From assembly GCA_963790805.1 (NCBI GenBank), contig CAWBPL010000002.1, positions 770,696 to 823,813 on the forward strand: DNA of 53,118 bases. The letters are read 5' to 3'. Within the stretch, counting starts at the first letter, position 1. Every line of letters begins with the position of its first letter. Under the pieces are notes generated by a model that saw only the letters and a list, made by a program, of their open reading frames with translations, did not search any database and was not told the DNA's origin. Positions 6,039 through 12,162 of the stretch are shown here, one piece after another. This DNA comes from Candidatus Gottesmanbacteria bacterium. GTDB lineage: Bacteria; Patescibacteriota; Microgenomatia; UBA10105; UBA927. A program made the position numbers and the translations under genes.

Positions 6039-6074
6039 TTGTTAATTCTTGTACTATTTTGTAAATACTTGTAT
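6039..6074 (+). promoter_or_regulatory. 10-bp-phased TTGTA-type direct-repeat array A
   Basis: ttgtta 6039, ttgtac 6049, ttgtaa 6059, ttgtat 6069. Confidence 0.55.
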
Positions 6075-6261
6075 TTTCTTCATTAACGCATAAAGAAGTA
6101 TCCCAGTTTTTATCTGAAACGTCGACGTATATCGGTTTGTATATTTTCTTGGTGAATATTTTGATTATAGAAGAGTCATGGCACCTTACTATAAGCTAAA
6201 AGTATGTTCAAAGGAGCAAAATACTCCAAAACACTGTTTCGATATCTTGACAAATGGTAAA

Positions 6262-6959
6262 AAATTCGACAATATATGGATAGTGATTGTGAATGTCTAT
6301 ACAATGATGTAACAGTTTGATCTAAAGCTCTATGGCACGAAGGCGGCATAAACAACAAGACCTCTCTACGGACATAAAATTACCCAGTGATGAGACAATT
6401 ATCGGCATCGCAAAGTCGTTGATCGATAAAATTTCGACAGAATCATCCACTGACACTAAATATGCTCCAGTTCGTCACATTTTGGCCCTCATCGGTGCCG
6501 GTCAAGCGGTCGATGTAACGACACTTTCACAGTACAATCCATACTATATTAAACGGACATTAAAAAGACTCAAACGGCAGCAACTCGTCGAGCAACAGGG
6601 GAGTATTTACCTTTTAACTATTCGCGGAAAACGATGGATTTTAAAGTATACGCTTGAGGATTTAGAGATTCCGAAACCCCGCGGGTGGGACGGGAAATGG
6701 AGAATGGTCATTTACGACGTTGCACGACACAAAGCAGCCCTTCGAAATATCTTCCGGACCACCCTTCGACGACTGGGTTTTTATAACGTACAGGAGAGTG
6801 TCTGGTTATACCCATACCCCTGTGAGAAAGAAATCGGATTTCTTCGTGATTATTGCGGTATGGGAGGGGATGTTATCTATGTTATTGCCCATAAGATAGA
6901 AAACGACGGGATATACCGCTCACACTTCGGTTTAAAGTAGCCAAATTCGACAAATATAT
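6262..6959 (+). repeat. Direct repeat AAATTCGACAA(A)TATAT flanking the PaaX/Cas2-like gene
   Basis: aaattcgacaatatat at 6262-6277 and aaattcgacaaatatat at 6943-6959. Confidence 0.6.
6332..6940 (+). CDS. PaaX-like wHTH / Cas2-fold protein (orphan, CPR-type)
   Basis: wHTH-like segment (IKRTLKRLKRQQLV...YLLTIRGK), then WDGKWRMVIYDV...LRRLGFYNVQESVWLYP. No cas1 or array nearby. Confidence 0.75.
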   Translation: MARRRHKQQDLSTDIKLPSDETIIGIAKSLIDKISTESSTDTKYAPVRHILALIGAGQAVDVTTLSQYNPYYIKRTLKRLKRQQLVEQQGSIYLLTIRGKRWILKYTLEDLEIPKPRGWDGKWRMVIYDVARHKAALRNIFRTTLRRLGFYNVQESVWLYPYPCEKEIGFLRDYCGMGGDVIYVIAHKIENDGIYRSHFGLK

Positions 6960-7170
6960 TCTTCGATCGTCTATCAGTCATCTTTCGGAAGCGCCATTTT
7001 ACTTGTGGCTGTCTCGGCGGGCCGATTACAGAAGAATTACACGGACAAAAGCGGAAAATTTAGTCGGTTTAACGGTTAAAGAGTTAGTATTCCTTCATTA
7101 TATATCGCAGAAGTTGTTCCAAGGTTCTAGGATGACGTATGGCGGTCTTTTATGGTGTATGATGGTAAAC

Positions 7171-8598
7171 ATGCAGGTACTTTTTGTGACAAGCGAACTT
7201 GCAGGGGTTTTTAAACTCGGAGGGCTTGCGGATGTCAGCTCATCATTGCCGATAGCCCTTGCTAGGTTGGGGGTGGAGGTGACGATAGCGCTTCCGTTCT
7301 ATAGGACGATCGACATTTCTGGGGCAAAAGGAGTGGGCGAACTGGCAGTAGACTTTGCCGGAAAACGGGAATTGGTGTTTATTTTTTCGAAACAATCGGA
7401 CCATAAAAATATAACGCTTCTTCTTTTCCGTCATCCAAAACTTGAAGATTATCACGCAAAGCCTGTCGAGGAAACGTTTGCATTTTATTCCCGTGTTATT
7501 TCAACATTTTATTCATATAGTGTCAATTTGTCGAAACAGATTGACATCGTACACTGTCATGACTGGCATACAGCCCTTATACCCATGCTCATCGGTGAAC
7601 AGAATAAACTTTTGCATGCAAAAGAGACAATACAGTCTAAACAGGTGAAGACTGTCATCACCATTCACAACCTCCTGTATCAGGGTGTCGTCGATGAACA
7701 TATCGCAGATTATGTAAATGCCCCGCGTAACCAGTTCCATCAATTAGAGGGAAAAAGGAAAGGTAAAGTGAGTCTTTTTCGTGAGGGTTTGGAATACGCC
7801 GATTACATCACAACCGTGTCGCCGACATACGCCAAGGAAATTATAGAAGAATCGCATCATGATGCGCTGGGGGATGTATTAAAGCGGCGAAGAGAATCGG
7901 TTACAGGAATTCTCAACGGCATCGATACGCGTTTATGGAATCCTTTGACCGATGCCGCGCTGCCACACCGGTATGACGCTTCTTCTATATTTACTGTAAA
8001 ACCGCAGCTTTCAAAATTGTTGCAAAAAGAAGTCGGGCTGCCGGAAAGTGCGGTACCGGTGTTTGGCTTCGTCGGGCGCATAGAGCCGCGCCAAAAGGGG
8101 ATTGACATCGTTTTGGAGGCGCTGAAAAAATTATTGCCGACACTCTCTATGCAGGCTGTTTTTTTGGGTACCGGTGAGCCGAAGTCGGTTGCACTCCTTA
8201 AAAAACTCGCGAAAGAGCATCCTCAAAAAGTCGCATTCATCCATGCGTTTGACGAGGTACTGGCGCGGCGAATTTACGCGGGCTCTGATGCGCTTCTTGT
8301 GCCTTCGAAATTTGAGCCTTGCGGGCTGACACAGATGATTGCCATGCGCTATGGTACGGTGCCTGTGGTTAGGGCTACGGGCGGTCTTGCAGATAGCGTG
8401 AAAGACGGAATAAACGGCATTGTGTTTGGGCCGTACAGCGGTTATGCGCTTGCTCAGGCTATAGAGCGAACAAGTACGCTTTGGGCCGATACATCGATCT
8501 GGAAAAAGCTTGTTACTGCCGGTATGCGTGAGGATTTTTCATGGGACAAAAGTGCCAGACAATATCTCGCTCTTTATACAAAACTTCAAAATTCATAA
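7171..8598 (+). CDS. glgA: Glycogen/starch synthase (GT5)
   Basis: MQVLFVTSE...KLGGLADV, VHCHDWHTAL, TIHNLLYQG, TTVSPTYAKEI, GILNGID and EPCGLTQMIAMRYGT motifs. Start chosen by N-terminal similarity. Confidence 0.93.
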   Translation: MQVLFVTSELAGVFKLGGLADVSSSLPIALARLGVEVTIALPFYRTIDISGAKGVGELAVDFAGKRELVFIFSKQSDHKNITLLLFRHPKLEDYHAKPVEETFAFYSRVISTFYSYSVNLSKQIDIVHCHDWHTALIPMLIGEQNKLLHAKETIQSKQVKTVITIHNLLYQGVVDEHIADYVNAPRNQFHQLEGKRKGKVSLFREGLEYADYITTVSPTYAKEIIEESHHDALGDVLKRRRESVTGILNGIDTRLWNPLTDAALPHRYDASSIFTVKPQLSKLLQKEVGLPESAVPVFGFVGRIEPRQKGIDIVLEALKKLLPTLSMQAVFLGTGEPKSVALLKKLAKEHPQKVAFIHAFDEVLARRIYAGSDALLVPSKFEPCGLTQMIAMRYGTVPVVRATGGLADSVKDGINGIVFGPYSGYALAQAIERTSTLWADTSIWKKLVTAGMREDFSWDKSARQYLALYTKLQNS

Positions 8599-9962: not shown

Positions 9963-12020
9963 ATGGCTGCCACATACACCGTCAAACAAGTTGCAGAAAT
10001 ATTAGGCTATTCCACCAATAGCATTTATACGTTTCTTAAGGAAAAACGGATTAAAGGAGTACGCGTGGGGAGAGGGAGATTTCGCATACCCCAGTCAGAG
10101 CTTGATCGGTTACTTTTGACGAAAGAAGGGAAATTAACGGTGCCACGGGAATATGGATTACCCATCCAGCCGGTGCCGGGTTTTACTCAGGCGCTGCCGA
10201 CAGGTGTTATAGAACCTCCGCGCCAAACCATCATATCGCCCAATTATGTGACCAGTTCCCATAATCGGGTTGATGTGCCCAGTCTTTTCGACTGGTTCGT
10301 CGGTATCGGATCCATTGTGCTGGGGCTTGCCATGTTTTTATTTTCGCGGGTGAATGAAGAGTATTCTTTTCAACAGTTTGCCGCGATTTTGCCGGCTATT
10401 CGAATGACTCTCATTGCGGGAGGATTCGGGATACTGTTAACCGACATCGTAAGCCGGAAGTTAAGTATCTGGCATACCGTATTTCACTGGGCTTTAGTGT
10501 TTGCATACGCCTTCTATGTAGTTATTCTGGTTGAGATGGCCAATTGGGAGGGAGTTGTCGTATTCGGGGTTCTTATGGCCACGCTGATTTTGACGTTTTT
10601 TACGGGAATCGGCGGGATTGCCGGATTTGCAATCTATGTTGTCGGCCTTTTGGCGCTTTTGCCTTCTGTTGCGGTATTTGCACCACAGCATTCGACGCTT
10701 CTGCCCTTTATGTCGTATTTACCGCTTCCGACGGCTGCGCTTTCGTATGTTTGGGTGTTTCTCATTCTCGGGGTGGCTACGATGGTCTGGCTGGGGTATA
10801 TGCGGGATCGCCGCGTGTTTTGGATCGGCATGATAGGGGTGAGCATACTTCTTATCGCTGTATCCATGCAGTATGCCATGTCACTCGCGTGGGGCCGGTC
10901 GCTTTTTATTCTTATTACCGCCATGTTGTCGCTTTTTGTACCGGTTTGGCAGTCGTTGACATTTACCCATAAGCACGATCGGGCCTTTATTTTCGGAGCA
11001 TTCGGAACATTACTTGTCCTCTACGTTTTGGTTGTCGGGGTGTTGCGCATTATGCAGACGAACGTTATGCAGTATGCGGGTCAGGAACTGAATAACAAGG
11101 TTGCGTACGGAAAGTCTCTCGTTGAATCGACAATTATGTCCTCAAAAACATCTTTGTCTTCTGCTGCAACAAATCCATTGCTCGTAAGCGCGCTGGACAG
11201 CGGAAAAAAGGATGACCTTCAATCGCTCGCGCGGGCATTGTTTGAAGGCAATACGTTATTCCGCCGCGTATTGATATTAGGCAGTGACGGAGCTCCGCTT
11301 ACGCTCTATCCCTATGCGGACGGGGAACAATCCTCGTACGCGCAAACTGATTATTTTATACAGGCGACAACGACAAAAAATACGGTAACATCAACGGTCT
11401 ATGACGGTGCCACGGATTCAATGCAAAAGTCCGTCGTTATAGCGGTGCCCGTTTTAAACGGTAAAAATGAAGTAATCGGTGTTATCGCAGGATCGCTTGA
11501 TCTTGCAACCTTGGGCAATAAGCTTCAGCAGATTGCCTCGACTTCAACCGGCGAATATTTCGTTGTCGTCGACAAAGCAGGGAAGCGTGTAATATTTCCG
11601 GATTTTCAACAGGTGGGTTCTGTCGTTGATTCCTCTGATACCATACGTTTGGGTCTTGCCGGTAATACCGGATTGACAGAGGGCAGTAATACTGAGGGCA
11701 CTACAACGCTTATTTCCTACGATGCGATCAATACTGATACCGGCTGGGCGATAGCAATCTATGCGCCGGTAACAAAAATACTTCAGAGTACAAACGCCGC
11801 AAATATCATGATTTTCTCCGTACTGGTTTTGAGCATATTTATCGTCTCTGTCTTTTTGTTAAGTCACAGGACGAAGGTACAGGTGGGAGAAGCCGTAGTG
11901 GTTTCGGATGCCACTGATATTCCTCATGAAACGCGTGTGGGAAGAGCGATGCATCAGGCGGCAACCAAGAAACGTTTGAAGGGAGCATCGAAAGCAAAAA
12001 AGCCGGAGGACACTTCATGA
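9963..12020 (+). CDS. Excisionase-type (MerR/HTH_17) HTH + ~9 TM + dCache-like domain + TM; putative membrane-bound one-component regulator
   Basis: [43 protein letters not shown] (HTH_17). Cache-like SVVIAVPV...[10 protein letters not shown]...[16 protein letters not shown]...WAIAIYAP. Confidence 0.8.
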
Positions 12021-12039
12021 TAAACGGATTTACACATCC

Positions 12040-12070
12040 AAAATCCTACGTCCCGCCCCGTCGGGATTTT
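12040..12070 (+). terminator. Hairpin after the HTH-Cache gene (terminator-like or REP-like remnant)
   Basis: aaaatcc 12040-12046 pairs with ggatttt 12064-12070; GC-rich interior tcccg/cggga. Confidence 0.4.
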
Positions 12071-12114
12071 CGCGTTTTACATGGGGCTCATTTTTGGCCT
12101 CAAAAAGTCCAGAG

Positions 12115-12162
12115 TTTTACAAGTATTTACCAATTTGTACTAAAGAGTTTCACAGTTTGTAC
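12115..12162 (+). promoter_or_regulatory. 10-bp-phased T(T/G)TAC direct-repeat array D upstream of the collagen gene
   Basis: ttttac 12115, atttac 12125, ttgtac 12135, ttgtac 12157. Confidence 0.5.

Follow-up and report, generated by a model that had tools for sequence, protein, structure and literature searches.

In Streptomyces, each protomer of the regulator BldC binds a 9-bp direct repeat through an AT-rich, narrowed minor groove and a major-groove contact, and BldC multimers assemble head-to-tail to variable length (PMC5859096), with the bound molecules lying one DNA turn apart (PMC11963761). The sites of excisionases, or recombination directionality factors (RDFs), again consist of direct repeats spaced by one helical turn (PMC7498355), and some RDFs also regulate transcription (PMC7498355, PMC11963761). 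Transmembrane transcription regulators (TTRs) such as ToxR, CadC and TcpP unite in a single polypeptide a DNA-binding domain in the cytoplasm, a membrane-spanning part and a sensor on the outside. Here we describe a locus of a Candidatus Gottesmanbacteria genome in which features of these systems occur side by side. It lies in a stretch of 53,118 nucleotides (the window, C2:770696-823813 of a genome of 1,254,851 bases with 44.6% G+C), where short arrays of TTGTAA-like units with a 10-bp period surround the gene of a membrane protein that carries an Xis/BldC-type helix-turn-helix (HTH) domain and a dCache sensor domain (the HTH-Cache regulator). We conclude that the arrays are very probably protein-binding operators, and consider it reasonably likely that the linked membrane regulator is the protein that binds them. 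Comparison of genomes gives strong evidence that the element exists and moderate evidence as to the identity of its binder. The arrays and the features that frame them are the following:

6039-6074, plus strand: array A, four 10-bp-phased units (TTGTTA 6039, TTGTAC 6049, TTGTAA 6059, TTGTAT 6069), just 3' of a terminator-like hairpin (6018-6032) and ~260 bp upstream of a PaaX-like gene and the glycogen synthase gene glgA
8661-8696, plus strand: array B, units TTGTAC 8661, TTGTAA 8671, TTGTAA 8681 and TTGCTA 8691, where the 3' ends of glgA and of a gene for a 317-residue protein (p317) converge
9853-9881, plus strand: promoter-like site of the HTH-Cache gene, TTGACA-N17-CATAGT, a 10/12 match, with a conserved AGATAT after it
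9891-9906, plus strand: array C1, two phased units (TTGTAC 9891, TTGTAA 9901), covering roughly +2 to +20 of the predicted transcript
9924-9949, plus strand: array C2, phased units TTGTAC 9924, TAGTAA 9934 and TTGAAA 9944, ending 14 nt 5' of the ATG at 9963
9963-12020, plus strand: HTH-Cache regulator gene, 685 amino acids
12041-12068, plus strand: terminator-like hairpin after the HTH-Cache gene, TCCCG-CCCCGT-CGGGA with a T-rich tail, as read from the sequence
12117-12142, minus strand: array D, units TAGTAC 12142-12137, TGGTAA 12132-12127 and TTGTAA 12122-12117, 33 nt 5' of the collagen-like gene start
12175-20052, plus strand: gene of a giant collagen-repeat surface protein of ~2,650 residues, with a conserved ATG at 12175

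All phased units listed in a first-pass annotation of this DNA were found in the sequence. It had placed array C between the promoter and the start codon of the HTH gene, in agreement with the promoter-like site at 9853-9881 and the ATG at 9963; C1 and C2 together occupy most of the leader between the two. For array D the earlier description stands in part: the array does directly precede the collagen-like gene, lying between the hairpin and the gene start, but as an inverted, minus-strand copy and not as a direct one. Its minus-strand sequence is TAGTACaaatTGGTAAatacTTGTAA, and a repeat finder pairs 12113-12144 with 9922-9953 of C2 at 84% complementarity over 32 nt. The plus-strand words TTTTAC, ATTTAC and TTGTAC of this region are a degenerate mirror of the minus-strand units. 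The hairpin at 12041-12068 was not called by a simple terminator scan; relatives have a hairpin at the same position 3' of the HTH-Cache gene.

The arrays are rare. The pattern TTGTAM-N4-TTGTAM occurs four times in the window, where 0.04 matches are expected and none of 100 shuffles reached four, and these four are also the total for the genome. Likewise, TGTA-N6-TGTA-N6-TGTA is found only twice genome-wide, in arrays A and B, and the three-unit pattern TDGTAH-N4-TDGTAH-N4-TDGWAH exactly four times, in A (6049, plus), B (8661, plus), C2 (9924, plus) and D (12117, minus), with no match in a reversed-sequence control. Since the four arrays are the only matches in the genome, they do not represent a general trait of its AT-rich spacers. 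The first-pass annotation had seen the arrays as clustered around the HTH gene and absent between 20 and 53 kb, and had named abundance in AT-rich intergenic DNA as what would speak against their being operators; the scan places all four matches in 1,254,851 bases in this 6-kb locus and finds none between 20 and 53 kb.

We next turn to related genomes. Orthologs of the regulator are present in 39 of 87 genomes of the order, all of them from one family; our set comprises 30 tabulated loci and 8 further, more distant ones from ~17 genera. Phased TTGTAA, TGGTAA, TAGTAA or TTGTGA units follow a conserved promoter in every one of these leaders (30/30 and 8/8), bearing out the conservation upstream of orthologs that had been proposed as a check, and the promoter TTGACA-N17-CATAGT itself is kept upstream of orthologs. 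The unit consensus is aaaYTKGTAAaaaY, a TKGTAA core followed by an A-tract, with 2-6 units in phase. The distance between cores has a sharp maximum at 10 bp (74 cases), with lesser ones at 22 bp (44) and 20 bp (24). A TKGTAA core plus A-tract repeated every 10 bp in 2-6 copies matches the architecture of BldC and RDF sites. Orientation is conserved as well: phased pairs in the 30 leaders are in sense orientation in 44 cases and antisense in one, and the 200 bp 3' of the regulator gene contain 35 inverted and 2 direct pairs, with only 6 pairs in 58.6 kb of coding sequence. An inverted array at the position of D, between terminator and collagen-like gene, is found in 18-19 of the 30 loci, and arrays at the position of B, 3' of the p317 stop codon, in 12 of 26 loci and in either orientation. 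The order p317 (divergent), HTH-Cache, collagen-like gene is kept in 28 of 30 loci, and the pair of HTH-Cache and collagen-like genes in all 30.

Some leaders depart from this layout in detail. In genus g13 and its neighbours (L031-L040, L052 and L056), inverted units flank the -10 element (TGTGAAAA, ~23 bp, TTTTCACA) and are followed by direct arrays, so that units in the g13 clade also lie within the promoter spacer; the spacer of G000 has a mirrored CGTATTTCACG. Two orthologs contain in-frame stop codons, three in G089 (two TGA and one TAA; L033, C6:64586-66550) and one TGA in G052 (L037, C22:14745-16631); both have leader arrays, and both may be decaying copies. In relatives the locus often sits on contigs of 4-10 kb or at contig ends beside collagen repeats or arrays, and contigs C6 and C47 of G074 both terminate at an array. 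Because short contigs and contig ends are so frequent at the locus, its absence from a draft genome is weak evidence of loss.

An order-wide search with TDGTRMNAACTKGTRA gave 66 matches in the 87 genomes, compared with 8 for a backwards control. The 39 ortholog-bearing genomes account for 58 of them, 45 within 3 kb of the ortholog, and the 48 other genomes for 8, about the control rate. With most arrays being linked to the gene, such co-occurrence ties the element to the locus but does not by itself tell who binds it. A further word, TAGTGATAACTGGTAA, found off-locus in 6 genomes including G000 (C2:551306), also matched the search pattern and was set aside as probably unrelated, and one match in G090 (C5:25675) lies within a coding sequence.

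Additional arrays are found at other genes. An array fills the 33-bp spacer 5' of the glgA ATG in G019, and another lies at an unlinked GT4-GT-glgA cluster in G093. In G002, an array directly precedes the Shine-Dalgarno site of the H+-pyrophosphatase gene hppA, and in G001 one stands 5' of a membrane spermidine-synthase-like gene. The gene of a 23S_rRNA_IVP four-helix-bundle protein is preceded by an array in 5 of 26 genomes (G041, G079, G092, G077 and G090), and in several relatives its orthologs are located 7-28 kb from the HTH-Cache gene. The window has a gene of this type at 50327-50617, with no array. These extra and unlinked sites suggest a small, lineage-variable regulon. Judging by the position of the arrays, the target set would be wider and more variable between lineages than the first-pass annotation had it, taking in the glgA cluster, the H+-pyrophosphatase gene and the four-helix-bundle gene.

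The candidate binder is the protein encoded between the arrays. Its N terminus matches HTH_17 (PF12728) at residues 5-51 (nucleotides 9975-10115) with 40.3 bits (cut-off 27), and the excisionase model TIGR01764 ('excise') with 36.1 bits (cut-off 28.8). The HTH is followed by a variable linker, ~9 transmembrane segments (residues 108-361), a dCache_1 domain (residues 370-599, nucleotides 11070-11759), a last transmembrane segment (residues 615-633) and a basic tail. By crude hydropathy, spans in odd number N-terminal to the Cache domain are compatible with a cytoplasmic HTH and an external sensor. We modelled residues 1-70 with AlphaFold2 (pLDDT ~77-86 over residues 1-50), and the secondary structure elements (strand 4-6, helix 7-14, helix 18-27, strands 33-35 and 39-43, helix 44-54) follow the order found in Xis and BldC. 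A Foldseek search with this model ranked the Xis of mycobacteriophage Pukovnik (4J2N) first and the BldC-DNA complexes 6AMA and 6AMK next (root-mean-square deviation 1.8-2.0 Å, target-normalized TM-score 0.71-0.79), followed by RacA and MerR proteins, and in a sequence search of solved structures the Pukovnik Xis was the sole single-domain match. By sequence and fold, the domain belongs to the HTH_17 excisionase-type family, as the first-pass assignment to an Xis/BldC-type HTH had it. PF12728 is present in all 120 homolog clusters listed (of 191), and together with PF02743 in all but two of those 120. The HTH is also better preserved than the protein as a whole, with 69-93% identity among orthologs compared with 29-56% for whole proteins, and its STNSIY-FL motif is invariant in 21 aligned orthologs. 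At the level of sequence, the constancy of the HTH matches that of the DNA core. Differences in the most divergent orthologs hint at co-variation, in two lineages only: G057 has FLEKKKI in its HTH and TTGTGACAAA units, and G043 and G046, with the HTH sequences STNTIYSFLNAKKL and STNTIYTYLNDRKL, both have T instead of C before each unit. The regulator start codon is directly preceded by CCTGCC, GAGCCT or GAGGCT in the window (9950-9962) and in orthologous leaders, and no well-spaced Shine-Dalgarno site is seen there. A word related to these, AGCCTCAAAA, occurs at 12092-12103, between the terminator and array D.

We compared the regulator to the systems introduced above. BldC shares its fold and, like the regulator, has no MerR coiled coil after the HTH. 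The sites are alike too, in that both are direct repeats in variable number, with an AT-rich stretch plus a few specific bases, one turn apart (PMC5859096). The repeat itself differs, AATTxxxx(C) at 9 bp in BldC and TKGTAA plus A-tract at 10 bp here, and the two HTH sequences are only 18-20% identical. BldC is a free protein of 68 residues with a large developmental regulon, whereas the regulator HTH is fused to ~10 transmembrane segments and a predicted extracellular dCache, with sites that are almost all local. The regulator is not a strict member of the BldC family, because it is not a small, free winged HTH protein but has 685 residues, transmembrane segments and dCache_1. Among excisionases and RDFs (Pukovnik Xis, lambda Xis, RdfS, Apl), the Pukovnik Xis is closest by both sequence and fold. 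Yet the regulator gene is chromosomal and syntenic across genera, its product is membrane-embedded, and neither an integrase gene nor an attachment site was found near it. As it has no integrase partner, the protein is not an RDF; it is a candidate regulator and not a recombination accessory.

With its DNA-binding domain and ~10 hydrophobic segments in one polypeptide, the protein belongs by architecture to the TTRs. ToxR and CadC have an OmpR-type winged helix and one transmembrane span, whereas the regulator has an Xis/BldC-type head, ~10 spans and a dCache; no Trans_reg_C match, the mark of ToxR and CadC, was found in it. A TTR census counts HTH_17 in 151 TTRs (0.30%) and dCache_1 in 936 (1.86%), and the dCache-bearing TTRs in the supplement passages considered have HTH_18 (PMC10269533). 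Our literature search returned no paper combining HTH_17 with dCache, and none on Gottesmanbacteria together with collagen. RacA of Bacillus subtilis (5I44) is a related winged HTH among the fold matches; it tethers sites of the chromosome to the polar membrane (reference 35 of PMC11963761). The sites of RacA are GC-rich and bound by a symmetric dimer (PMC5859096), and RacA reaches the membrane via partners, whereas the regulator is an integral membrane protein and the arrays are AT-rich direct repeats.

On balance we favor a reading in which the arrays are operators of this membrane-tethered regulator, serving autoregulation and control of the collagen-like gene and sometimes of glgA and other genes; we hold it to be somewhat better than an even bet. 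The binder would be a transmembrane one-component regulator, with its Xis/BldC-type winged helix in the cytoplasm and the dCache facing outward. By analogy to BldC and the excisionases, several HTH heads may line up on an array head to tail, one per helical turn, with the recognition helix reading TKGTA in the major groove and the wing inserted in the narrow minor groove of the A-tract. An array located just after the transcription start of the regulator gene would allow for autoregulation, most simply repression by occlusion or roadblock, and the inverted array between terminator and collagen-like gene could put the latter under the same sensor. Arrays A and B, and in relatives those at the glgA, H+-pyrophosphatase and four-helix-bundle genes, would complete a small, lineage-variable regulon. 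HTH binding, its head-to-tail mode, the sign of regulation and control by a Cache ligand are all inferred. The collagen-like gene is a likely target of the arrays, and its product may serve as an attachment factor. A link between the regulator and adhesin expression had been proposed in the first-pass annotation; it agrees with the inverted array in 18-19 of 30 loci, and the remaining loci lack one.

Several observations weigh against this assignment. A head-to-tail filament needs several HTH heads, while the regulator is a polytopic membrane protein. The strict sense polarity of the leader arrays also fits a role at the RNA level. About one third of the loci lack an array at the D position, including one clade that retains the collagen-like gene, and array A was not recovered as a conserved site in G001, G002 or G003, that is, not even within the genus. 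Co-occurrence across genomes is largely due to linkage and does not identify the binder. Finally, G077 and G090, two sister species with draft assemblies that are 88% and 94% complete, have a five-unit array 5' of the four-helix-bundle gene, yet no HTH ortholog or collagen-like gene was detected in them; either the locus is absent from the drafts, or another factor reads the motif.

The latter option leads to the alternative that survives best, namely that another trans-acting factor reads the operators, be it p317, the PaaX-like protein or a regulator encoded elsewhere, and that the HTH-Cache gene is only a target. The remaining features of the locus are:

4671-5867: GT4 glycosyltransferase gene
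6332-6940, plus strand: PaaX/Cas2-like gene, a possible target; arrays A and B flank this gene and glgA
7171-8598, plus strand: glycogen synthase gene glgA, with a conserved ATG at 7171, a possible target
8733-9686, minus strand: divergent gene of p317, the 317-residue protein, which has a weakly matched DeoR-like winged HTH at its C terminus and faintly resembles a Fic-family protein
9728-9746 and 9810-9828: a second motif, TGATAAG-N4-TGATAAG, as two inverted pairs with an 11-bp period in the promoter region shared by the p317 and HTH-Cache genes

The p317 gene is adjacent to the regulator gene in 28 of 30 loci, linkage by itself does not identify a binder, and the five-unit arrays of G077 and G090 fit a second factor. 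However, p317 has a conserved motif of its own. The TGATAAG repeats are kept in relatives, and their minus-strand pair overlaps the spacer and the -10 element of a TTGACA promoter for p317. In two genomes, G075 and G050, the p317 ortholog is missing and just a distant paralog, found in G000 as well, is present, yet the leader arrays are kept; p317 is thus dispensable for the TTGTAA arrays. Comparison of G075 with sister genomes that have p317 shows the TGATAAG/GATTACGATA repeat to be decayed in the former and kept in the latter. This decay pairs the TGATAAG motif with p317 and frees the TTGTAA arrays from it. The PaaX-like gene is part of the locus in only four genomes; GT4 and glgA often stand upstream in relatives. 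Direct repeats in variable number and one turn apart are moreover the known habit of the Xis/BldC fold present in the linked gene. We therefore regard a different reader as rather unlikely. Near one of the arrays in question, unit 4 of B forms the -35 element of a plus-strand promoter-like sequence (TTGCTA-18-TATAAT, 8691-8720) that points antisense into the 3' end of p317; this promoter is not kept in relatives (G003, G006) and was rejected as a conserved site.

A variant that keeps the regulator as the binder is that the arrays are docking tracks which tether the locus to the membrane, a RacA-like anchoring fused to a sensor. Here, clustered sensor heads would form filaments on the oppositely oriented arrays that bracket the regulator gene and abut the collagen-like gene, and a ligand bound at the Cache domain would choose between a locus closed into a loop and one kept at the membrane, where transcription, translation and insertion of its membrane and surface products would be coupled. 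We consider this picture unlikely.

A role at the RNA level would make the repeated CUUGUAAAAA a leader element for translation or stability, or would let the sense leader array base-pair with its antisense counterpart ahead of the collagen-like coding sequence. The 44 sense pairs in leaders compared with one antisense pair fit such a role, as do the arrays that reach a start codon or Shine-Dalgarno site (G019 glgA, G002 hppA) and the complementarity of C2 and D. A 10-bp period, accompanied by maxima at 20 and 22 bp, is, however, a feature of the DNA helix, arrays of the B type occur in both orientations, and those of the D type are antisense to both flanking genes and lie beyond the terminator. 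The likeness of C and D scores 14.5 within a genome and 13.2 between genomes (standard deviation 2.9). Because it is no higher within than between genomes, there is no compensatory co-evolution, and we rejected leader-to-adhesin RNA pairing for want of a within-genome excess of complementarity. No Rfam family was matched at gathering thresholds in a search of the whole window, and the preservation of an identical motif in ~17 genera, also at sites unlinked to the locus, argues for a reader with sequence specificity. Together these findings make an RNA element decidedly unlikely.

It is less probable still that the arrays are generic curved DNA, a nucleoid-protein site or UP-like promoter element that has no dedicated regulator. 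A-tracts of four to five adenines phased every 10 bp, as found here, are expected to bend DNA. Against this, the 1.25-Mb genome contains no further arrays of this kind, conservation extends to the TKGTA core besides the A-tract, and the arrays lie downstream of the promoter and not at -40 to -60. That they are recombination sites or relics, bounding an invertible segment or a mobile cassette with an excisionase-like gene, is scarcely credible: inverted 32-nt arms do flank the regulator gene and its HTH is of the excisionase family, but the arms match at only 84% and resemble each other no more within one genome than across genomes, the gene order is kept across ~17 genera, the window has no tRNA gene, and the only two tyrosine recombinase genes (PF00589; C2:482280 and C2:1001137) are more than 175 kb from it.

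Bacteria of the Candidate Phyla Radiation (CPR, Patescibacteria) are uncultured and have very few regulators, and to our knowledge no experimentally supported regulator-operator pair has been reported for them. The locus described here offers a specific, testable pair, consisting of a 10-bp unit, a 55-residue domain and defined targets that include a collagen-like protein. If our assignment is true, the filament-forming binding mode of Xis and BldC would extend to a membrane-tethered, ligand-sensing receptor, and one would then have to ask how a protein in the membrane can provide a single array with several heads.

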